This document shows, one piece after another, positions 43,604 to 56,738 of a DNA stretch of 64,000 nt (within the stretch, counting starts at the first letter, position 1; every line of letters begins with the position of its first letter). The position numbers were made by a program, and so were the translations under genes. The notes under the pieces were generated by a model. It ran no database searches. It saw only the letters and a program-made list of their open reading frames with translations, and was not told the origin of the DNA. This stretch comes from Candidatus Latescibacterota bacterium (GTDB lineage: Bacteria; Latescibacterota; UBA2968): NCBI GenBank assembly GCA_965198115.1, contig OZ240241.1, positions 2,816,001 to 2,880,000 of the forward strand, written 5' to 3'.

Positions 43604-44977
43604 GAGTTCAGGTCAATAGGTGTGTAAAAGAAATCAGGCGGCCATCTTCCCGGCTTCGACCTGCGGTCCGGTTGAGTGTTTCTGATCGTAGACTTGTTGT
43701 AGCAAGTGTGGCGCGGTGAGTTTCCTGAATCGGCTCTCTGCGACCTTGAGCGTACGCCAGATGAGAGCCGTGGCGTTCCTGACTTTCTTGAATCGCCTGG
43801 CGGCGTTTGTGCGAAGCCGAACGGAAGCAAAGGGGCTCTCGACGACGTTCGTGGTTCTCAGGTGTTTCCAGTGTTCCTTCGGGAAGTCGTAGAACGTGAC
43901 CATCCGATCCCAGTCTCTTTCGAGCGTCTCCACGGCGGCAGGGAACTGTGAGCGATACCGTGCGGCAAAGCGTTTCCGGAGCTTCTCGGCCTCCTTTTTC
44001 GTGCCGGCATAGGGGATCTGGACGAGCAGTGCGCGGGCTTCAGCCTGTGCACGCTTGGCGACCTTGTCGAGCACGTTGAGGATCTTGTGGTTCCAGCACC
44101 GTTGTTGCCGGCTCTCTGGCCAGACCTGATCAACGGCCGCCCAGATGCCCATATTCCCGTCCGCGGCGATCAGGACAGGATGTTCGAGCCCGCGATCCCG
44201 GAGATCCCGGAGCACCGTGAGCCAGGATTCTGTAGACTCTCGATAACCGGGTTCTATCGCCAGGATCTCCTTGCTGCCGTCGCTCATCGCGCCGATCACG
44301 ACCAGCAGACACGCCTTCTCGCGCTCGAGCCCGGCTTTGACGTAGATGCCATCAGCCCAGGCGTAGACCAGTTCGCGATTATCCAGACGCCTTTCTTTCC
44401 AGTCCTGGAAGTCGACCTCCCACTTCCCTCGAAGACGAGCGATCGAGGTCGGCGAAAGCGGCGCGCCATCACCGAGCAGCGCACGCAAAGACAACTCGAA
44501 GTCGCCCTGGGAGAGACCGTGGAGATAAAGGTCGGGAAGCAGATCTCCAATGGCCCTGGTTCTCCGGGCGAACAGGGGGAGGATGCGGCTTTCAAACCGC
44601 TCTTCCAGACCACGAACCCGGGGACGCCGGACCTTGATCGTTCCGCAGCTCGTCGAGAGACGCCGGGGCTTGCCGTAGCCGTTCCTGTAGCCCCTGGAGC
44701 TATCGACCTCGGCTCGGCGCTCATACCACGACCGGCCCAAGAACGCGGTCGCCTCCTCCTCCAGAATGGACTGGAACCGGCCCTGGATCTCTTCACGGAT
44801 CCAATCGTCAACCGTCTCCCACGTCGGCATGGACTTCAATGGGGCTCTATGCGTATGTTCCTTCACGGCGATCCTCCTTCCCAACCGGGCCTCTCACCCG
44901 GTTTTGTGTGAATCAACTATCTCACGGGAAGGGTAGGGTCGCCCTTTCTCTTTTTCCACACCTTTTGATTATAGCTC
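43604..44977 (-). mobile_element. IS256-family IS type A, copy 1 (1374 bp); transposase 43634-44884
   Basis: RNGY, ADG, QRCWNH and RTTNVVES motifs; terminal IRs; 8-bp TSD CCATTCCG. Confidence 0.95.
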
Positions 44978-45176
44978 CCATTCCGCGTACTATGCTTCTT
45001 GACGTTACTCGTTATCGGTAAACAGGGACCGATCGGAGCCGTGAACGCTGATGGAAGATTCCAGTGAAGGGAGCGGGGAATGATCGAGGTCGGTTCGAAG
45101 CGACAGCTCTTCTTGGATGACTACATCATTGGTCGGATGGACAACGTCAGCCGGGTGCTTCACCAGCCTGAAAAAC

Positions 45177-46596
45177 GGCTCTATCCGGGTTTCTCAACGG
45201 TGAAACTATAGAATGACAAGGTCATAGATCGTTCCCTACGCTTGGTTGTGTGTGTAGGACAATCAAAGCGAAGGGGGTGCGACCTATGACCGGGAGCAGA
45301 TTACTATCGAAACTGCTGAGATTCAAGGGGTTCCGTGTTGTCAGCTGGTGGTTTGAGAGGAGAAGCTGTTTCGTCATCGCCGTAAAGCCACATAAGAATG
45401 GTTGTTGTTGTCCGGAGTGCGGCCGTCGAGGTAAAATCGTCCGCACAATGCCCCATCCGCGTCGGTGGCGTGACATTCCGGTGTGCGGGTGGAGGGTCTG
45501 GCTTCTCTACCATCCTCGGGAGATTCGGTGTCCTACCCACGGTCGTGTGGTCGAGGAGATTCCGTGGGCGGAGCGGTTCTCTCGGGTGACGTATCGCTTC
45601 GAGTATGCCATGCTGCGCTACTGCCAGACCATGACGCAGAAGGCGGCGTCCGAGTTGCTGCGCATCTCTGCCTCGACGCTGTCGGATCTCCTTCACCGAT
45701 CCATCACGCGGCTTCGTGAAGGTCATCGTATCCGAGGGCTCAAAACCATCGGGATCGACGAGATCTCCTACGCCAAGCGTCACAGGTACGCCACGCTCGT
45801 TTACGATCTGGACCGCTCCTGCGTGGTGTGGGTTGGCCGCGGCAGGGCGCGTAAAACGATCGATCGGTTCTTCACAGAGGCTCTCAGTCCCTACCGGAGA
45901 TCCAAGATCGAGTGGGCCTGCTGCGACATGAGCGAAGCTTACATCGGAGCCATCCAGGAACACTGTCCGAATGCCAAGCTGGTCCTCGATCGCTTTCACA
46001 TCGTCAAGGCTCTCAATGCCGCCGTTGACGAGGTCCGTAAGGACCAGTGGCGTAAAGCTGCCCCGGATGAGCGCAAAGCCATGAAGGGCCTCCGATGGCT
46101 CCTCTACCGGCACTCAGCGACACGCTCCAGAGGGGATACTCGGACACTCAAAGCACTGGAGAAGGCGAACTACCGAATCTATAGAGCCTGGAGACTCAAG
46201 GACGAGTTCGAGCAGTTCTGGGAATACAAAGCGCCCTGGGCTGCCGAACGCTTCCTGAAATGCTGGACGACGTCCGCACTCAGAAGTCGACTTGAACCCC
46301 TGCGAAAGTTCGTCAGGACCCTGCGACAGCACTTCTTCGGCGTCCTCGCATTCGTGAACACGCGTCTTACCAACGCCATCGCCAAAGGCCTCAACCGAAT
46401 CGTCCAAATCGTCAAGAACCGAGCCAGCGGATTCCGCACACTCGACGCATTCAACGATATGATCTTCCTTACCGTCGGAGACATAAACATCCCTGAGCAG
46501 ATTCCGAAGAGGTTCCGCACACTCTAACCGCGCCCCCATGCCAGGAACCACGGCACCTTCACCCACTTCATCTCGTTGAGAGATCCGGATATAGCC
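45177..46596 (+). mobile_element. ISL3 copy 2 (1420 bp); transposase 45250-46527
   Basis: Near-identical to copy 1; TSD TGAAAAAC. Confidence 0.95.
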
Positions 46597-47875
46597 TGAA
46601 AAACACCCTGAGAATCCAGTCCTGGTTCCAGAGCATCCCTGGGAAGGAACGGGCGCCTCTCCTCATATGGTGATCTACGATGAGGAGGAAGAACTGTATA
46701 AGCTTTGGTACACCAGCTTCAAGGTACACGATTCCCTGCCCGGGTTTGAGGATCTTGAGAAAGTCGAGGGGATTCACGGAAAGAATTCGGTGGAACTGCC
46801 CGGGCTGGATATCCGCCAGGCGAAGGGCGGACCTTTGAACGTCTATTCCCACTGCTATGCAACCTCAAAGGACGGCGTGCATTTCGAGAAACCGCAACTC
46901 GGTCTGGCACCCTTTCCCGGATCGGACGAGAAGACGAACCTGTGCCCGCGGAAGCCTGCCCTGCATGATCCAGATCCTCAGAGGCGGTTCAAGGCGGTGA
47001 TTGGCACGGGAGACCGATCAGAGCGTATGGGAATTTCCTGGTCGTCCGATGGGCTTCGTTGGACAGATCACGCGAACAATCCGGTTCTCGACAAGGGTCT
47101 TGGCGCCGGTCGGGTGATCTGGGAGGAGAAACTCAGCCAGTATGTCGGATACTTTAGGCCAATGCCCTGGTTGGTCTACCCCGAGCGGGGACCAAAAGGG
47201 ATTCGCGTTCTGGGCCGATGCACGAGTCCCGATTTTGTCCAGTGGACGTTGCCTCAGGATGACGTCGTGCTTGCGCCAGATGAGCAGGATGATATGGGCA
47301 TCGAATTCTACAACATGCCTTTCTTCAATTACGAGGGTTGCTACATTGGATTCCTCTGGATTTACTACAACTATTCACAGACGGGGAATTCGGACCCGGA
47401 AAGCGGGGGCAGGCCCTTCGACGCAGAAGGTCTGGACAAGCTGATGGACTCGCAGCTGGTCTTCAGCCGGGATGGTCACGAGTGGACGCGGGTATGCGAC
47501 CGGCAGCTGTTTATGGCCTGCGGGAAGCCTGGTACCTGGGACGAAATGGAGGTCCATCCGTCAGGCATGATCGAGCGGGACGGCGAGTTGAAGATCTACT
47601 ACTCAGGAAAAGTCAGGGGTCACGGGCAGCGCCTGTCACGCGTGACCGATACAATCGTTGAAGGTCGTGACGTCGTGGGCGCAGTCGGATTGGCCACACT
47701 GCGCCTGGACGGATTCGTGTCCGTGAATGCCGGGGAGGCTGGCGGGGAGCTAATGACGCGGCCGTTCGATCCAGGTAAGGGAAAAAAGGTGTTCATCAAT
47801 ACGAATGCTTCGAAGGGAAGTGTGGCGGTAGAAGTGCTGGACCCGTATGCGGAACCATTGGAGGGATTCACACGC

Positions 47876-49249
47876 GAGCTATAATCAAAAGGTGTGGAAA
47901 AAGAGAAAGGGCGACCCTACCCTTCCCGTGAGATAGTTGATTCACACAAAACCGGGTGAGAGGCCCGGTTGGGAAGGAGGATCGCCGTGAAGGAACATAC
48001 GCATAGAGCCCCATTGAAGTCCATGCCGACGTGGGAGACGGTTGACGATTGGATCCGTGAAGAGATCCAGGGCCGGTTCCAGTCCATTCTGGAGGAGGAG
48101 GCGACCGCGTTCTTGGGCCGGTCGTGGTATGAGCGCCGAGCCGAGGTCGATAGCTCCAGGGGCTACAGGAACGGCTACGGCAAGCCCCGGCGTCTCTCGA
48201 CGAGCTGCGGAACGATCAAGGTCCGGCGTCCCCGGGTTCGTGGTCTGGAAGAGCGGTTTGAAAGCCGCATCCTCCCCCTGTTCGCCCGGAGAACCAGGGC
48301 CATTGGAGATCTGCTTCCCGACCTTTATCTCCACGGTCTCTCCCAGGGCGACTTCGAGTTGTCTTTGCGTGCGCTGCTCGGTGATGGCGCGCCGCTTTCG
48401 CCGACCTCGATCGCTCGTCTTCGAGGGAAGTGGGAGGTCGACTTCCAGGACTGGAAAGAAAGGCGTCTGGATAATCGCGAACTGGTCTACGCCTGGGCTG
48501 ATGGCATCTACGTCAAAGCCGGGCTCGAGCGCGAGAAGGCGTGTCTGCTGGTCGTGATCGGCGCGATGAGCGACGGCAGCAAGGAGATCCTGGCGATAGA
48601 ACCCGGTTATCGAGAGTCTACAGAATCCTGGCTCACGGTGCTCCGGGATCTCCGGGATCGCGGGCTCGAACATCCTGTCCTGATCGCCGCGGACGGGAAT
48701 ATGGGCATCTGGGCGGCCGTTGATCAGGTCTGGCCAGAGAGCCGGCAACAACGGTGCTGGAACCACAAGATCCTCAACGTGCTCGACAAGGTCGCCAAGC
48801 GTGCACAGGCTGAAGCCCGCGCACTGCTCGTCCAGATCCCCTATGCCGGCACGAAAAAGGAGGCCGAGAAGCTCCGGAAACGCTTTGCCGCACGGTATCG
48901 CTCACAGTTCCCTGCCGCCGTGGAGACGCTCGAAAGAGACTGGGATCGGATGGTCACGTTCTACGACTTCCCGAAGGAACACTGGAAACACCTGAGAACC
49001 ACGAACGTCGTCGAGAGCCCCTTTGCTTCCGTTCGGCTTCGCACAAACGCCGCCAGGCGATTCAAGAAAGTCAGGAACGCCACGACTCTCATCTGGCGTA
49101 CGCTCAAGGTCGCAGAGAGCCGATTCAGGAAACTCACCGCGCCACACTTGCTACAACAAGTCTACGATCAGAAACACTCAACCGGACCGCAGGTCGAAAC
49201 CGGGAAGATGGCCGCCTGATTTCTTTTACACACCTATTGACCTGAGCTC
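47876..49249 (+). mobile_element. IS256 type A copy 2 (1374 bp); transposase 47969-49219
   Basis: Near-identical to copy 1; 9-bp TSD TTCACACGC. Confidence 0.95.
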
Positions 49250-49349
49250 TTCACACGCAAAGATGCAATTCTATTCTCTGGAGATTCAATCGAACACGAG
49301 GTTGGATGGAGAGAGAAAGCCACCTTAGAAGGACTGAATGGGTCCGCAA

Positions 49350-50731
49350 GGTGTTGTGCCTATCGTAGTTGAAACTTAGAGGGCTCCAAACTTACGTTGG
49401 GTAGACGTGTAGGAGCGTATACCCGTAAGAAAGGAGCCCAGATGGAGAAGCTATTTGTAGGCGATGGTGAAGTCAAGGTTGAGGGCGATGTCATCGATTT
49501 GGAGACGCGTTTGTCGGTGATCCAGGCGTTGATCCCGTTGGGTCTGGAGGCAGTGGCAGACCTCCTCCAGCAGGAGGTCGAGCAGCTCGCAGGCGTTCGG
49601 TATGCGCGCAAAGGTTCGGAGCAGGCGCATCGTCGGTGGGAAGCCAGAAGGGATCCGTGTATCTGATGGACCAGAAGCTCCCGTTAGACGTTCCCCGGGT
49701 GCGCGACGTCGAGGCCGACGCAGAGGTTTCCCTGGCTGCATACCGGGCTCTACAGACGCCCAAGAAGACGGACGAGGGGCTGTTGCTTCGTGTTCTCAAG
49801 GGGATCTCGTGCCGCAACTACAAGGCCTGTGCCGAATCGGTTCCAGAAGCGTTTGGTATCTCAGCGTCCTCCGTCTCGCGGCGGTTCATCAAAGCCACCG
49901 CGAAGAAGCTGAAGCAGTTCCAGGAGCGTCCCCTCGACGACTACGGCTTCGTGACCCTCTTCATTGACGGAAAGAGCTTTGCCGACGAAGAGATCGTGAT
50001 CGCTCCGGGGGTCACGATGGACGGCCAGAAGATCCCCCTGGGCTTCGTCGAATCGGCGACGGAGAACGAACGGATCTGCCGCCAGCTGATCCAGGACCTC
50101 ATCTGGAGAGGCCTGTGCTACGACCAGGCCTTCTCGTTGTGCTCGACGGCTCAAAGGGGCTCCGCAGTGCCGTCACCAAAGCCCTCAAAGGGTATGTGCG
50201 CGTTCATCGCTGCCAGTGGCACAAGCGCGAGAATGTCGTCAGCTATCTCCCGGAGAGGGAACGTCCGCGAATCCGACGGAAGCTCCAGAAAGCCTATGAC
50301 TGCGACACCTACGAGGAGGCAAAGGCCGCACTCGAATCACTTAAACCCGAACTGAAGCTGATGAATCAGTCTGCCGTAACGAGCCTCGAGGAAGGCCTGG
50401 AAACCCTGACCCTCCACCGGCTGGGGATGCTCCCGTTCCTGAAACGAAGCTTCCGAACCACCAACTGCATCGAAGCCCTCAACAGCATGACCGGCGAGCT
50501 CACTCGGAAGGTCAACCGCTGGAACAACTCTCCCCAGAGACACAGATGGGTGGCTGCCGCACTCCTCGACATCGAACCTCGCCTGAGACGCGTGAGCAGA
50601 TACAAACATCTTCCCCTACTCAGGCAAGCACTGAACAAAGATCTGAATCTCGACAACGAACAGAATGCTCAAAAGAGAGCCTGACCAAACTACGGGGCCC
50701 GATGAGTTTCAACTGACTATGGGACTTGACC
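49350..50731 (+). mobile_element. IS256-family IS type B; transposase frameshifted twice
   Basis: IDGK, VLDG, RCQWHK and RTTNCIE motifs; IR core AGTTGAAACT/AGTTTCAACT; 9-bp TSD GGTCCGCAA. Confidence 0.88.
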
Positions 50732-50944
50732 GGTCCGCAATCCGGCTTCGGTTTGTGATGAGAAACGCTGAACTTTATTCTTTTAGAATTGGATCTTGAA
50801 TGGTAACGACTTACCCACGAGCGGAGTGTAGTGGGCGTGCCCGGAAGAGGCAAATGAGATCCGAGAAAGTACGTGAGGCGGCCAAGGTGCGGTGGGGGCT
50901 CGTAGAAGGAGCTCGCGCGTCACCGAGCCTAAGAGGTATTTGAA

Positions 50945-52206
50945 ATGAACATCGATGAATTGCACGCAAAAGTTGCCTGTCTCGAGCGAGAACTGCGAGA
51001 GACTCGCGACCAACTCTCGCAGGCAACCCACGACCCCGAGACCGTCACGGCCGAACTCGCTCGCACTCGTGCGTTTGCGTTCAACGCCACAACGGATCCG
51101 GTCAAAGACACCATCGAAGGATGTGTCGACGCCATCAGTCGACACGGGTTCTGCGTCATCGACAACGTCATTCCCGCCAATGAAGTGGACGCCATCCGCG
51201 ATGAAACCGTAGCCGCGAAGTCAAAACAGACCCGGAATATTCAGGCCGTCAAGGACCTGTCCGATCAGAAGGGATTGATGGATGCGGACTTGCTCAACCA
51301 GGCCTCGGCCGATGGCCTGGAGCTGAGGCCTGTGCGCCGATCCGGTCACCCACCCAAACCACCGAACGACATCATATGGATGCCGCAATACGCCCAGCAT
51401 CTGGCCAACCCGGTCGTGACGGCAGTCGCGCGCCGCATCCTCGACGATCATCTCCGGATCGCTCAGCTGCATCCCCGGATCATCGAGTCCGACAGGCCGG
51501 GTGCCACATCAGGGGGATCTGGATCGATCAAGGTGCACGGGCGAGCCGGTATGCGGGGATGGCACACGGACTGGCCTCACGATTTGTCGGCTTACGGCAG
51601 AGCCGATCCGAACGTGAACGCCGGGTGCGTTCGTCAGCCTTTTCCCGACGTGACCCTGTGTCTGGTGATGATCTGGTATCTCACAGACGTGGACGCCGAT
51701 TCGGGCGGCACGTGGGTCGTGCCGGGATCGCACAGGGACCCTCGCAACCCTCGCGGGCCGGCCGACAGAATGGTGGTCACGGCGCCGATCCCCGGAGAGA
51801 TGCAAGTCGCCGCGCCAGCGGGATCGGTCTATATCCAGGATTCACGGTGCTGGCACTCCGCCGCGATGCACAATCCCAGCGACCGGGCGCGGGTTGCCGT
51901 GGTTACCCGCTGGTGCCCCTGGTGGGTGTCGGTCGACGACTTCGCTCCGGGCGACAAATACAATGTCAATATGGTCTGCCGGCCTCTATCGCACGCGGAG
52001 TATCTGGACCTACCTGCCGACCTGCAGCCGTTGCTGCGGCACGTCTGTCCCGAGGAGCGGGATACGCTGCAGCAACCTGTGCTGGACCGCGCCAAGGCGG
52101 CTGGTATGCGTACTCGGGAAGGGTTCCGCCAATTGGAGAAAACGCAGACGGCTTGGCGAATGCGAACGACCACGTCCGAGTACCGGTGGATCGCCTGAGC
52201 GATTGA
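50945..52206 (+). CDS. PhyH-family dioxygenase; possible frameshift near 52140
   Basis: HGFCVI, WHTD, GGT.VVPGSH and WHS motifs. Confidence 0.82.
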
Positions 52207-52274
52207 ACGGTGGGTCACATCTGAGGGTGCCGTACTTCCACGTTGAGCCTGGCGAAACGTCCCCGAAATGAAAA

Positions 52275-53695
52275 GGCTATATCCGGATCTCTCAACGAGA
52301 TGAAGTGGGTGAAGGTGCCGTGGTTCCTGGCATGGGGGCGCGGTTAGCGTGTGCGGAACCTCTTCGGAATCTGCTCAGGGATGTTTATGTCTCCGACGGT
52401 AAGGAAGATCATATCGTTGAATGCGTCGAGTGTGCGGAATCCGCTGGCTCGGTTCTTGACGATTTGGACGATTCGGTTGAGGCCTTCGGCGATGGCGTTG
52501 GTAAGACGCGTGTTCACGAATGCGAGGACGCCGAAGAAGTGCTGTCGCAGGGTCCTGACGAACTTTCGCAGGGGTTCACGTCGACTTCTGAGTGCGGACG
52601 TCGTCCAGCATTTCAGGAAGCGTTCGGCAGCCCAGGGCGCTTTGTATTCCCAGAACTGCTCGAACTCGTCCTTGAGTCTCCAGGCTCTATAGATTCGGTA
52701 GTTCGCCTTCTCCAGTGCTTTGAGTGTCCGAGTATCCCCTCTGGAGCGTGTCGCTGAGTGCCGGTAGAGGAGCCATCGGAGGCCCTTCATGGCTTTGCGC
52801 TCATCCGGGGCAGCTTTACGCCACTGGTCCTTACGGACCTCGTCAACGGCGGCATTGAGAGCCTTGACGATGTGAAAGCGATCGAGGACCAGCTTGGCAT
52901 TCGGACAGTGTTCCTGGATGGCTCCGATGTAAGCTTCGCTCATGTCGCAGCAGGCCCACTCGATCTTGGATCTCTGGTAGGGACTGAGAGCCTCTGTGAA
53001 GAACCGATCGATCGTTTTACGCGCCCTGCCGCGGCCAACCCACACCCACGCAGGAGCGGTCCAGATCGTAAACGAGCGTGGCGTACCTGTGACGCTTGGC
53101 GTAGGAGATCTCGTCGATCCCGATGGTTTTGAGCCCTCGGATACGATGACCTTCACGAAGCCGCGTGATGGATCGGTGAAGGAGATCCGACAGCGTCGAG
53201 GCAGAGATGCGCAGCAACTCGGACGCCGCCTTCTGCGTCATGGTCTGGCAGTAGCGCAGCATGGCATACTCGAAGCGATACGTCACCCGAGAGAACCGCT
53301 CCGCCCACGGAATCTCCTCGACCACACGACCGTGGGTAGGACACCGAATCTCCCGAGGATGGTAGAGAAGCCAGACCCTCCACCCGCACACCGGAATGTC
53401 ACGCCACCGACGCAGATGGGGCATTGTGCGGACGATTTTACCTCGACGGCCGCACTCCGGACAACAACAACCATTCTTATGTGGCTTTACGGCGATGACG
53501 AAGCAGCTTCTCCCCTCAAACCACCAGCTGACAACACGGAACCCCTTGAATCTCAGCAGTTTCGATAGTAATCTGCTCCCGGTCATAGGTCGCACCCCCT
53601 TCGCTTTGATTGTCCTACACACACAACCAAGCGTAGGGAACGATCTATGACCTTGTCATTCTATAGTTTCACCGTTGAGAAACCCGGATAGAGCC
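52275..53695 (-). mobile_element. ISL3 copy 3 (1421 bp); transposase frameshifted near 53045
   Basis: Near-identical to copies 1-2 with one extra base; TSD AATGAAAA. Confidence 0.95.
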
Positions 53696-54557: not shown

Positions 54558-54641
54558 TGGTGGGGCGCTACGGAATCGAACCGCCTATCCGAAAGGCACG
54601 AGGGTTACAACCTCGCTCTCATCCCACTGAGTAGACGCCCC
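54558..54641 (-). tRNA. tRNA-Tyr(GTA)
   Basis: CGAGG-TTGTAAC-CCTCG; long variable region; CCA. Confidence 0.85.
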
Positions 54642-54791
54642 TATGTTGGGATCGACCCTTGCGGGCCAACCGATGATTGGAGGAGGGCACAGGAGTCGAA
54701 CCCGCACCGTTTCCGATGGCGTCACGGTTTTCAAGACCGTTTCCAGTCCACACTGGGCTACCCTCGATATGGACGAGCCTGATGACGACAT
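54585..54791 (-). other. Ser-rich mini-ORF (MSSSGSSIS...) running into tRNA-Ser
   Basis: GAGGAG-5 nt-ATG; 6 of the first 9 codons are Ser. Confidence 0.5.
54678..54766 (-). tRNA. tRNA-Ser(TGA)
   Basis: ACGGT-CTTGAAA-ACCGT; long variable arm; C1:C72 mismatch; U73; CCA. Confidence 0.8.
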
Positions 54792-54807
54792 CGTGACTCC
54801 TCTGGTC

Positions 54808-54884
54808 TGGCTCCGGTGGTAGGATTCGAACCTACGACTGACAGTGGTTAACAGCCACCCGCTCTGCCACTGAGCTACACCGGA
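54808..54884 (-). tRNA. tRNA-Asn(GTT)
   Basis: GGTGG-CTGTTAA-CCACT; G73; CCA. Confidence 0.93.
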
Positions 54885-54889
54885 ACAGA

Positions 54890-54962
54890 TGGTAGCGGGG
54901 ACGGGAGTCGAACCCGCCAAAGCCGGGATATGAGCCCGGCGTGCGCACCAGCGCTCCCCGCA
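54890..54962 (-). tRNA. tRNA-Met(CAT), initiator-like
   Basis: CCGGG-CTCATAT-CCCGG with three G-C pairs; 1:72 mismatch; short D arm; CCA. Confidence 0.82.
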
Positions 54963-54969
54963 CAAGGTT

Positions 54970-55043
54970 TGGAGCGATCGGAGGGAGTCGAACCCTCATC
55001 ATCAGCTTGGAAGGCTGAGGCCCTGCCGTTAGACGACGATCGC
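54970..55043 (-). tRNA. tRNA-Gly(TCC)
   Basis: TCAGC-CTTCCAA-GCTGA; U73; CCA. Confidence 0.93.
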
Positions 55044-55112
55044 TCTGAACCCGACGTTGCGCGTCGCCTCGTTCCTCCTTGTAAGGCCGGGCATTGCGCT
55101 CACTCGGGTAAG

Positions 55113-55189
55113 TGGTAGTCGCCCCGGGATTCGAACCCGGACTGAACGCGCCCTCAACGCGATCCCTCTGCCGGTTGGGGTAGGCGACT
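55113..55189 (-). tRNA. tRNA-Leu(GAG), short variable loop
   Basis: TCGCG-TTGAGGG-CGCGT; 5-nt variable loop; A73; CCA. Confidence 0.85.
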
Positions 55190-55190
55190 C

Positions 55191-55267
55191 TGGTAGGGGC
55201 GGAGAGATTCGAACTCTCACTTTACACGGTCTGAACGTGCTCCCTCTGCCGATTGGGGTACGCCCCT
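55191..55267 (-). tRNA. tRNA-Leu(CAG), short variable loop
   Basis: GCACG-TTCAGAC-CGTGT; 5-nt variable loop; A73; CCA. Confidence 0.87.
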
Positions 55268-55272
55268 AATGT

Positions 55273-55346
55273 TGGTGCCCGCTGGAGGACTCGAACCCCC
55301 ATTTCGTGGTCCGTAGCCACGCGGTAATCCCTTAGCCTAAACGGGC
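55273..55346 (-). tRNA. tRNA-Arg(ACG)
   Basis: CGTGG-CTACGGA-CCACG; CCA. Confidence 0.87.
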
Positions 55347-55351
55347 AGTAC

Positions 55352-55425
55352 TGGTGTCGCGGGACGGATTCGAACCGCCACTGTCTGGTCTTCAGCCAGA
55401 GGTGCTACCGTTACACCACCACGAC
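55352..55425 (-). tRNA. tRNA-Phe(GAA)
   Basis: TCTGG-CTGAAGA-CCAGA; CCA. Confidence 0.9.
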
Positions 55426-55430
55426 AACAT

Positions 55431-55506
55431 TGGGGTGATCGATGGGATTCGAACCCACGGCGACCCGGTCCACAGCCGGGCGTTCTACCGCTGAACTACG
55501 ATCACC
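55431..55506 (-). tRNA. tRNA-His(GTG)
   Basis: CCCGG-CTGTGGA-CCGGG; G-1:C73 pair; CCA. Confidence 0.93.
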
Positions 55507-55510
55507 ACGA

Positions 55511-55597
55511 TGGGGCCGGTGGCAGGACTTGCACCGGCGTGGGGCTTACGCCCGGCTGCTTACAAGGCAGCTGCTGTCGCTACTGAGCCACACCGGC
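55511..55597 (-). tRNA. tRNA-Thr(TGT) with long variable arm
   Basis: GCTGC-CTTGTAA-GCAGC; variable arm GGGC-GTAA-GCCC; T loop TGCAAGT; CCA. Confidence 0.8.
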
Positions 55598-55606
55598 AGT
55601 CTGTTT

Positions 55607-55681
55607 TGGAGCGTCCGAGGGGAATCGAACCCCTGTCTGCGCGATGGCAACGCACCGTCTTGGCCGCTGGACCACGGACGC
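55607..55681 (-). tRNA. tRNA-Gly(GCC)
   Basis: GTGCG-TTGCCAT-CGCGC; U73; CCA. Confidence 0.9.
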
Positions 55682-55689
55682 TGTCTGTC

Positions 55690-55764
55690 TGGCGCCCCCA
55701 CGGGGAGTCGAACCCCGATTTGCTGATCGACAATCAGCTGTCCTGGCCGTTAGACGATGGGAGC
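55690..55764 (-). tRNA. tRNA-Asp(GTC)
   Basis: GCTGA-TTGTCGA-TCAGC; G73; CCA. Confidence 0.92.
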
Positions 55765-55765
55765 G

Positions 55766-55841
55766 TGGTGGACCGGGTAGGCTTCGAACCTACGATCTCC
55801 CGCTTAAGAGGCGGGTGCTGTGCCGACTTAGCTACCGATCC
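55766..55841 (-). tRNA. tRNA-Lys(CTT)
   Basis: CCCGC-CTCTTAA-GCGGG; CCA. Confidence 0.9.
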
Positions 55842-55856
55842 ACGATTTCAAAGAGC

Positions 55857-55931
55857 TGGAGGGCAGGGACGGAATCGAACCGTCGTTGAGCCGGGTTGCA
55901 ACCGGCCGCTTTGCCACTTAGCTACCCGCCC
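55857..55931 (-). tRNA. tRNA-Cys(GCA)
   Basis: GCCGG-TTGCAAC-CCGGC; U73; CCA. Confidence 0.92.
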
Positions 55932-56003
55932 TGGCGCGCCGTCGAGGTGTCGAGCCCCGCACACCGGGTTTTGGAGACCCGATTGGACGCCGGTCCCCGG
56001 CGC
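55932..56003 (-). tRNA. tRNA-Trp(CCA), reduced D arm
   Basis: CGGGT-CTCCAAA-ACCCG; G73; T loop CTCGACA; CCA. Confidence 0.75.
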
Positions 56004-56008
56004 GTATC

Positions 56009-56076
56009 TGGTGACCCCGGAGAGTCGAACTCTCAAGGTTCTTAACCTGATGCGTATGCCATTCCGCCACGGGGTC
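56009..56076 (-). tRNA. Truncated or pseudo tRNA-Leu (apparent anticodon AAG)
   Basis: Perfect acceptor stem and Leu-type D arm, but only 68 nt with no variable region. Confidence 0.55.
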
Positions 56077-56080
56077 GTGT

Positions 56081-56157
56081 TGGTTGGCGCGGTCGGACTT
56101 GAACCGACTGTCTCTCGCTTATAAGACGAGTGCCTTTACCCCTTAGGCTACGCGCCG
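56081..56157 (-). tRNA. tRNA-Ile(TAT)
   Basis: CTCGT-CTTATAA-GCGAG; C1:A72 mismatch; A73; CCA. Confidence 0.82.
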
Positions 56158-56163
56158 ACAAAA

Positions 56164-56238
56164 TGGTGACGACGGAGGGAGTCGAACCCTCGTCTTCTGG
56201 TTGAAAACCAGAGATCCTGACCGTTGAACGACGCCGTC
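56164..56238 (-). tRNA. tRNA-Glu(TTC)
   Basis: TCTGG-TTTTCAA-CCAGA; CCA. Confidence 0.9.
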
Positions 56239-56313
56239 TGGTGGCCCGAGCAGGAATCGAACCTGCCTCGAGCGGTTTAGAAGACCGCTGCCTCTCCAAT
56301 AGGCTATCGGGCC
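56239..56313 (-). tRNA. tRNA-Arg(TCT)
   Basis: GCGGT-CTTCTAA-ACCGC; CCA. Confidence 0.9.
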
Positions 56314-56315
56314 GT

Positions 56316-56392
56316 TGGTGCGCCCGACAGGATTCGAACCTGCACAGTTCAGATTAAAAGTCTGATACCCGACCGGATTGGGTGACGGACGC
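56316..56392 (-). tRNA. tRNA-Lys(TTT)
   Basis: TCAGA-CTTTTAA-TCTGA; CCA. Confidence 0.9.
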
Positions 56393-56443
56393 ACGGATTC
56401 CGTGTCTTCTCGTTTTCCTGTGTTTTCGTGGTCTGCGTTTCAT
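56354..56443 (-). other. Lys/Arg-rich mini-ORF (MKRRPRKHRKTRRH..., 29 aa) running into tRNA-Lys
   Basis: AAA x3, AGA x3, AGG, CGA and CGC within codons 2-13; weak GGA RBS. Confidence 0.4.
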
Positions 56444-56457
56444 CGTGCGTTCCGTTT

Positions 56458-56531
56458 TGGCACGGGGCTGAGGAATCGAACCCCAATTCGAAGAGTCAAA
56501 GTCTTCCGTCTTCCCGTTAGACGAGCCCCGT
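56458..56531 (-). tRNA. tRNA-Gln(TTG), first gene of the array
   Basis: GAAGA-CTTTGAC-TCTTC; G73; CCA. Confidence 0.9.
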
Positions 56532-56533
56532 AC

Positions 56534-56570
56534 AAAGAAAAACCCCATCAGATCGTGGTCTGACGGGGCC
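56534..56570 (-). terminator. Attenuator terminator immediately upstream of the tRNA array
   Basis: CCCCGTCAGA-CCACGA-TCTGATGGGG followed by TTTTTCTTT. Confidence 0.85.
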
Positions 56571-56620
56571 TCGGTGATTCTGCTTCTGCGATTGGTTCTA
56601 CGTCACCGTTACCCCGCCAG
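56560..56620 (-). promoter_or_regulatory. Antiterminator helix
   Basis: CTGGCGGGG (56620-56612) pairs with CCCCGTCAG (56568-56560); inner helix CGGTGA/TCACCG. Confidence 0.75.
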
Positions 56621-56738
56621 TCGAGTCTTGTGTGCCATCCAGGGCATACATAAGCGTCCACGCGGATTCAAAGGTCGCGTCGCCGCAATGGACCTGCCCG
56701 GATTTGCGTAGTGACGATATGGGAAACGATGATCTCAT
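56598..56738 (-). CDS. Putative leader peptide (46 aa) of the tRNA-array attenuator
   Basis: MRSSFPISSLRKSGQVHCGDATFESAWTLMYALDGTQDSTGGVTVT; last codons form the 5' strand of the antiterminator; RBS is weak. Confidence 0.6.
   Translation of the reverse strand: MRSSFPISSLRKSGQVHCGDATFESAWTLMYALDGTQDSTGGVTVT

Follow-up and report, generated by a model that had tools for sequence, protein, structure and literature searches.

The window, by which we mean the whole 64,000-nucleotide stretch of DNA analysed, carries an accessory long tRNA array in which 20 called tRNAs lie within 2 kb on one strand (Table 1). A housekeeping tRNA set that includes Lys(TTT) and Arg(TCT) is dispersed elsewhere in the genome, and the array is therefore supernumerary and qualifies as an L-array as PMC8421152 uses the term. 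In the accessible text of that paper, L-arrays such as the Anabaena trn operon are described as long, supernumerary and patchily distributed, and the Anabaena array as induced by translational stress; the array of the window resembles them in all three properties. Its tRNA-Lys type was found in two of 168 genomes of the phylum (G000, the genome studied here, and G080), a count in which incomplete genomes may hide some, and this patchiness is the L-array property that suggests horizontal transfer. None of 40 relatives searched has the array; G001, which belongs to the same genus, retains only three array-type tRNAs, an Asp-Leu-Gly remnant (L002 1289-1576). BLAST of the array against plasmids and phages returned short tRNA matches only, none of them spanning the array. 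Rfam scans of the arrays of the window and G080 gave matches that belonged to the tRNA clan or fell below threshold and none in the spacers, and a promoter scan gave no sites. A cluster of Mutator and ISL3 transposases (43634-53622) between tRNA-Leu(CAG) (43446) and the array is consistent with a mobile island. Two elements within the array are degenerate and tRNA-like, one a remnant of Val(TAC) type and the other a short Leu(TAA)-like gene that ARAGORN missed (55044-55112 and 56009-56080, minus strand); tRNA-Trp(CCA) was called only at a lower threshold, and tRNA-Ser(UGA) (54678-54765, minus strand), with its unusual ends and low Rfam score, may be decaying.

Table 1. Features of the tRNA array and its first spacer, in window coordinates.
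Feature	Position	Strand	Basis or remark
Leader uORF of the whole array, 46 aa	56598..56738	minus	sequence and position alike in L231 and L241
Predicted antiterminator strand, last codons of leader uORF	56611..56622	minus	nascent-RNA folds
Intrinsic-terminator-like hairpin and U-tract, directly before tRNA-Gln	56539..56572	minus	terminator scan, folding
Accessory long tRNA array	54558..56531	minus	20 ARAGORN calls plus weaker Trp, Leu-like and Val-like elements
tRNA-Gln(UUG), first array gene	56458..56531	minus	ARAGORN and Rfam
Spacer, 65 nt, tRNA-Gln(TTG) to tRNA-Lys(TTT)	56393..56457	minus	between called tRNA genes
Predicted anti-acceptor strand, 11 nt over the weak ribosome-binding region before the ATG	56445..56455	minus	duplex energy, nascent folds
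Mini-ORF, 29 codons	56354..56443	minus	ATG at 56443, TAA at 56356-56354; homologues known
Predicted second, local hairpin at the tRNA-Lys 5' junction, competing with the cloverleaf	56391..56405	minus	folding
Predicted target of the anti-acceptor strand: last 2 spacer nt and tRNA-Lys nt 1-8 (5' acceptor strand, RNase P site)	56385..56394	minus	
tRNA-Lys(UUU), array copy	56316..56392	minus	ARAGORN; Rfam 59.7 bits
tRNA-Arg(UCU), array copy	56239..56313	minus	ARAGORN and Rfam
Ser-codon ORF before tRNA-Ser(UGA)	54585..54791	minus	strong SD at 54797-54803; this genome only

In nascent-RNA folds of the window, L231 and L241, the 3' end of the leader uORF pairs with the 5' arm of the terminator-like hairpin; in G080 a transposase-like ORF takes the place of the leader. 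The head of the array matches the whiB7 attenuator, for which the accessible part of 10.1101/2023.06.02.543512 describes a uORF, an antiterminator in its last codons and an intrinsic terminator, and read-through under translation stress would be predicted. It differs from whiB7 in having a tRNA array and not a transcription factor downstream, and the internal mini-ORF discussed below is not part of the whiB7 system as that source presents it. Terminator-like sites on the minus strand were confined to 56572, 54525 and 54474, with none after the mini-ORF. A terminator-like hairpin also precedes the first tRNA-Trp in several Actinomycetota/Acidobacteriota arrays (L183, L192, L202, L225, L280).

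The first spacer of the array is occupied by a mini-ORF whose 29-aa product would read MKRRPRKHRKTRRHGIR in the spacer part, with Lys or Arg at 9 of the 12 residues after Met, and then ASVTQSGRVSDF within tRNA-Lys. The spacer is A-rich (A30 C16 G16 T3, 46% A). Three AAA and three AGA codons lie in frame in the spacer part of the ORF, codons 2-4 being AAA CGC AGA. The preliminary description had reported these codons ahead of tRNA-Lys(UUU)-Arg(UCU), entry into tRNA-Lys at codon 18 and termination at a TAA inside the anticodon loop. Coordinates and codon counts bear this out: codon 18 is the first of tRNA-Lys, and the TAA overlaps its last anticodon base. It had also called the Shine-Dalgarno sequence weak, in agreement with our value (-3.5 kcal/mol, shuffle p=0.03); the anti-SD of the host 16S rRNA is normal. 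The label 'rare-codon' that it attached to the ORF fits AGA and less so AAA, since AGA makes up 7.5% of Arg codons in the host, whereas AAA, at 33% of Lys codons, is only moderately rare. To the question it raised of how often shuffled spacers yield such an ORF, 100,000 mononucleotide and 100,000 dinucleotide shuffles gave frequencies of 5e-4 and 2e-4, respectively, for an ATG followed by at least three AAA and at least three AGA, a statistic chosen post hoc. None of 1085 SD-led host genes has at least three of each in codons 2-17. A longer in-frame ATG at 56548, overlooked in the preliminary description, would give a 64-aa form reading through tRNA-Gln; we rejected this form because no ATG is present at that place in L231 and L241, the two homologues with an intact leader. 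An NCBIfam scan of the mini-ORF, the leader uORF and the Ser-codon ORF returned no families.

Besides the window, three arrays with the order Gln(TTG)-spacer-Lys(TTT)-Arg(TCT)-Glu were found, one in G080, another Latescibacterota genome of the same order, and two on the metagenome contigs L231 and L241. The ATG, whose presence in homologues had been left for later checking, is kept in all three, and each ORF has a K/R-rich start (MKRRSRKIRK in G080, MRRRRKYRKQ in L231, MSHKRKIRSK in L241). The window and G080 use different, synonymous codons at position 3. The distance between AGG-AAA and the ATG is 24 nt in the window, 15 nt in G080 and 21 nt in L231, in frame each time. Locus scans constrained by nothing but tRNA features and the length of the spacer returned 45 genome loci and 89 metagenome loci. 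Among the matches listed for the 45 genome loci, five from Actinomycetota/Acidobacteriota have an SD, an ATG and in-frame AAA-CAG, 16 are Chryseobacterium loci with an A-rich spacer and no conserved frame, one is G080, and the remaining 23 consist largely of housekeeping clusters or of loci with a false Arg match. The pre-Lys(UUU) spacers of Chryseobacterium (L166, L168, L171 and others) have complementary ends in many copies and are possibly an RNA-only analogue.

A wider family was defined, after inspection, as spacers with a GC content of at least 0.45 and Met, Ile, Gln or Lys-CTT as the upstream tRNA; it comprises 43 of 89 unique spacers, and 41 of the 43 have an in-frame AAA. The 24 family representatives use AAA 33 times and AAG three times, against a host N-terminal baseline of 46% AAA, and ATA accounts for 13 of their 23 Ile codons (host N-terminal baseline 7%); the Ile tRNA that decodes ATA lies directly upstream in many of these arrays. 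In 23 of the 24, AAA falls within codons 2-6. The motif AAAC is in frame in 26 of 28 occurrences among the representatives, at distances of 3-27 nt. The peptide, by comparison, is not conserved beyond its K/R start, which is shared in the Gln type only; length, C-terminus and stop vary freely, and the high-GC members are not K/R-rich. Termination in the anticodon loop, noted previously, is not supported as a design feature: it is confined to three of the four Gln-type arrays, and in 31 of the 43 family spacers the stop lies at -6, -4 or +7, counted from the start of the tRNA. Nor is the start context CACGATG supported as a signal: it is common to the mini-ORF and the Ser-codon ORF (54791), as had been noted, but the homologues have other contexts. 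In some mini-ORFs another codon replaces the ATG: ATA behind a strong SD, adjoining tRNA-Ile(UAU), in L225, L239, L249, L274 and L279, GTG in L273 and ACG in L290.

In what is the least biased of our comparisons, we then considered spacers irrespective of content, taking all non-tRNA-like spacers of 30-200 nt from arrays of at least eight tRNAs (461, of which 392 unique, in 275 clusters at 75% identity). Of the 47 clusters before Lys(TTT), 15 have an ATG ORF with a strong SD, against 13 of the 228 before other tRNAs. The cognate codon occurs in frame in 14 of the 15 ORFs before Lys(TTT), where it is AAA, against one of the 13 before other tRNAs; the other frames of the same 15 ORFs contain AAA in 1.5 cases on average. 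Since the sequences are kin, such p-values as we give overstate the case. Viral loci, retrieved with no filter on spacer length, gave 110 matches and 85 true Lys-Arg pairs, of which 38 have no spacer and 47 have free spacers in 32 clusters. Seven of the 32 clusters, against two of 180 control regions before other tRNAs, beat their own shuffles at p<0.05, and on viral contigs six of nine free spacers before GCGTCC-type tRNA-Lys carry an ATG ORF with an early AAA. K/R-rich versions of the mini-ORF recur in phage and low-GC arrays. Two viral contigs, L301 and L316, have a 13-codon ORF with four AAA, and in both a strong hairpin spans the 5' junction of tRNA-Lys.

On these comparisons the mini-ORF before tRNA-Lys(UUU) is a real, conserved feature, and its conserved trait is the choice of codon and the position before the cognate tRNA, not the residue or the peptide. 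It is very probably translated, and the strongest single point for translation is that the frame is kept at several distances. Many arrays lack the module, among them the viral pairs with no spacer and the Chryseobacterium loci with no conserved frame. Of the earlier interpretation, a conserved mini-ORF in which AAA, and not just any Lys codon, stays in frame beside its decoder thus stands, while the CACGATG context, the position of the stop, the Ser-codon ORF as a second case and the tpr analogy are not supported as general features.

Folding predictions suggest an output for the mini-ORF. In the window the duplex between the predicted anti-acceptor strand and its target has an energy of -18.4 kcal/mol (p=0.0012 when that segment is shuffled), with -18.0 (p=0.0012) in G080 and -15.0 (p=0.010) in L231; in L241 the anti strand is not significant (-6.5, p=0.25). 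The helix is predicted for nascent RNA that reaches only 12 or 20 nt into the tRNA, and it persists at 40. Alone, tRNA-Lys is predicted to fold into the cloverleaf, and with the spacer attached it is not. We modelled the ribosome by masking a ribosome-sized stretch of RNA and took the probability of the acceptor stem as the readout. Unmasked, the window gave 0.02; placing the A site on codons 2-4 raised this to 0.99 and placing it on codon 5 to 0.66, while from codon 6 on the value did not exceed 0.15. G080 and L231 gave the same pattern; in the Gln type the initiation mask alone gives rescue. Masking at the second and third AAA and at the AGA-AGA pair of the window gave no rescue, so half of the 'rare' codons lie outside the fold explanation. 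Blocking of the anti strand alone raised the probability to 0.50 only. In the context Gln-spacer-Lys-Arg with neighbours free to misfold the window showed no rescue (at most 0.06), which returned (0.92-0.99) only when tRNA-Arg or both neighbours were held folded.

The high-GC set (18 representatives, i.e. the 24 minus the four Gln-type members, L233 and L289) has the complementary strand just after AAA. Its unmasked acceptor-stem probability was 0.20, compared with 0.51 for shuffled tails (p=0.001); masking gave 0.80 at AAA, 0.25 at AAA-2 and 0.24-0.27 two or more codons before AAA. The rescue is not codon-precise, as it spans AAA-1 to AAA+4. In G080 an ORF before tRNA-Ile(UAU) gave rescue only at CGA-ATA-CAG-ATA. 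A position-blind duplex test was significant in three of 21 clusters and gave p=0.31 for the window. RNAalifold found no consensus structure and no pairs in 30 of 35 high-GC spacers, and a named 5-bp helix, although 84% paired (16-63% when slid), showed no two-sided change and no excess over shuffles.

These models suggest that the mini-ORF may be a switch, operated by ribosome stalling, that governs how the spare tRNA-Lys(UUU) next to it folds and is processed, a reading to which we give an even chance. With the ribosome absent or past codon 5, the anti strand would pair with the 5' end of tRNA-Lys and block the cloverleaf; a ribosome held on codons 2-4 (AAA, CGC, AGA) would cover the anti strand and let the cloverleaf form. 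Slow decoding of AAA or AGA, because the housekeeping tRNA-Lys(UUU) or Arg(UCU) is uncharged, under-modified or cleaved, would be what holds the ribosome there. The cloverleaf could then be cut by RNase P and the spare tRNA-Lys(UUU) mature, whereas under fast decoding the misfolded precursor would be lost. The same logic would apply to the high-GC arrays, with the anti strand just after the AAA codon. The mini-ORF switch would then be a codon-specific second gate nested beneath the general translation-stress gate of leader uORF and terminator. More tentatively, and at somewhat less than even probability, we propose a general principle, tRNA self-release in mobile arrays, by which the ribosome, starved at the cognate codon, would serve as a folding chaperone and license maturation of the missing tRNA. 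If true, tRNA processing would be the level at which a codon-specific feedback operates, with tRNA-Lys(UUU) as its object and a second instance at tRNA-Ile(UAU) in G080. tRNA-Lys(UUU) is a frequent target of anticodon nucleases. A portable module of ∼60 nt would make the amount of one tRNA depend on how its own codon is decoded, acting by folding of the precursor and not by way of a promoter or terminator, and it would explain how spare arrays can stay silent, leaving the tRNA pool unskewed, yet respond when one decoder fails.

The main rival retains the RNA switch but makes general or drug-specific stalling, not the supply of cognate tRNA, the signal. We regard it as unlikely. The K-R-R start of the window is an Arg/Lys-X-Arg/Lys motif, at which arrest by a macrolide or ketolide would hold the ribosome in the rescue window; the arrest motif is described in the accessible text of PMC8298421 and 10.1101/2025.06.03.657637, it occurs in the first 8 residues in the window, G080, L231 and L241, and ribosome-targeting antibiotics induce the Anabaena L-array according to the accessible text of PMC8421152. 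However, it is present in only seven of 24 representatives, whereas AAA is found early in nearly all of them, and a motif read at the peptide level leaves the preference for AAA over AAG unaccounted for. Less probable again is a constitutive ribosome landing pad, where any initiation would open the helix or shield the untranslated array from Rho and ribonucleases, and AAA and other A-rich codons would serve to favour initiation and keep the RNA unstructured. A-rich early codons do aid initiation, no second codon is commoner in the host than AAA (65 of 1085 genes), and the sufficiency of the initiation mask in the Gln type is what a landing pad predicts. The high-GC set behaves otherwise, with masks two or more codons upstream of AAA failing where the mask at AAA works, and neither the conserved ATA near codons 8-10 nor the restriction to Lys(UUU) spacers would be accounted for.

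Two further explanations dispense with the switch. An untranslated A-rich spacer or RNA-only element, with the ORF of the window a chance occurrence or decaying relic, seems improbable to us: the composition of the spacer, the weak SD, the decay elsewhere in the array (the Val-like and Leu-like remnants, the odd ends of tRNA-Ser) and the partial pairing of AAACAG with tRNA nt 6-8 in some members speak for it, but they have to be set against the shuffle frequencies, the ATG and frame kept in all three Gln-Lys-Arg homologues and the in-frame motif at varying distance. We consider it still more improbable that the product is a functional basic peptide, protamine-like or tpr-like, that binds RNA or ribosomes. 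The abundance of Lys and Arg after the Met and the recurrence of K/R-rich versions in phage and low-GC arrays would suit such a peptide; the variable length, C-terminus and stop, the high-GC members poor in K/R, the conservation of codon choice in place of residue and the empty NCBIfam scan would not. The accessible part of PMC3141248 describes tpr as a protamine-like protein of the E. coli tyrT transcript. The mini-ORF resembles it as a small basic ORF inside a tRNA transcript and differs in that codons and position by the cognate tRNA are conserved and the peptide, beyond its K/R start, is not, so that the analogy drawn in the preliminary description is not supported.

In the transcription attenuators trpL, hisL, pheL and thrL, a leader peptide carries control codons. 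The mini-ORF is likewise a short ORF with conserved codons cognate to the regulated function, at which the position of the ribosome is predicted to choose the fold. It differs in the lack of a downstream terminator, which led us to reject terminator-based attenuation at this site, in that the competing structure is a tRNA cloverleaf and in that the regulated product would be the decoder tRNA. In translational attenuation of the ermC/ermD type, the ribosome stalls over one strand, and an element sequestered until then is set free. Masked folding predicts strand release by a stalled ribosome here too, but not in the unconstrained full context, and the window has the K/R-X-K/R motif known from the accessible text of PMC8298421, albeit with the limited occurrence given above; the freed element, however, would be a tRNA acceptor strand with its RNase P site and not the RBS of a protein gene. 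With no terminator, and a tRNA strand as the element released, the mini-ORF falls outside both classes. The Anabaena trn operon differs as well, having the repressor TrcR (accessible text of PMC10272220) and no ATG in the spacer before Lys(UUU), so that the module is absent there. We did not find mini-ORFs inside tRNA arrays described in a literature search that largely missed subscription papers and did not extend to supplements; the main texts of PMC8421152, PMC10272220 and PMC4758250 contain no 'leader' and, where searched, no 'uORF' or 'ORF'. What appears to be new, judged from sequence comparison and modelling, is a module that is specific to Lys(UUU) and occurs in chromosomal arrays across several phyla, with the anti-acceptor strand as its candidate output.

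The Ser-codon ORF had been put forward as an independent second case. It is statistically unusual (dinucleotide shuffle p ∼1e-3), but it is absent from G080 and L241, and as a candidate folding switch it was rejected, giving no rescue at any codon (at most 0.08). It is also the sole cognate-codon match among the 13 strong-SD ORFs before non-Lys tRNAs, a proportion on which we rejected, for these arrays, the rule that every array tRNA has a cognate mini-ORF. A hairpin motif is shared by the ∼174-nt spacers between tRNA-Glu(CTC) and tRNA-Ile(TAT) of L052 (6250-6423, minus strand) and L241 (1678-1850, minus strand) and occurs in two copies in G080, where it has no Rfam match; it is followed by an ORF with two ATA codons that adjoins the Ile tRNA.
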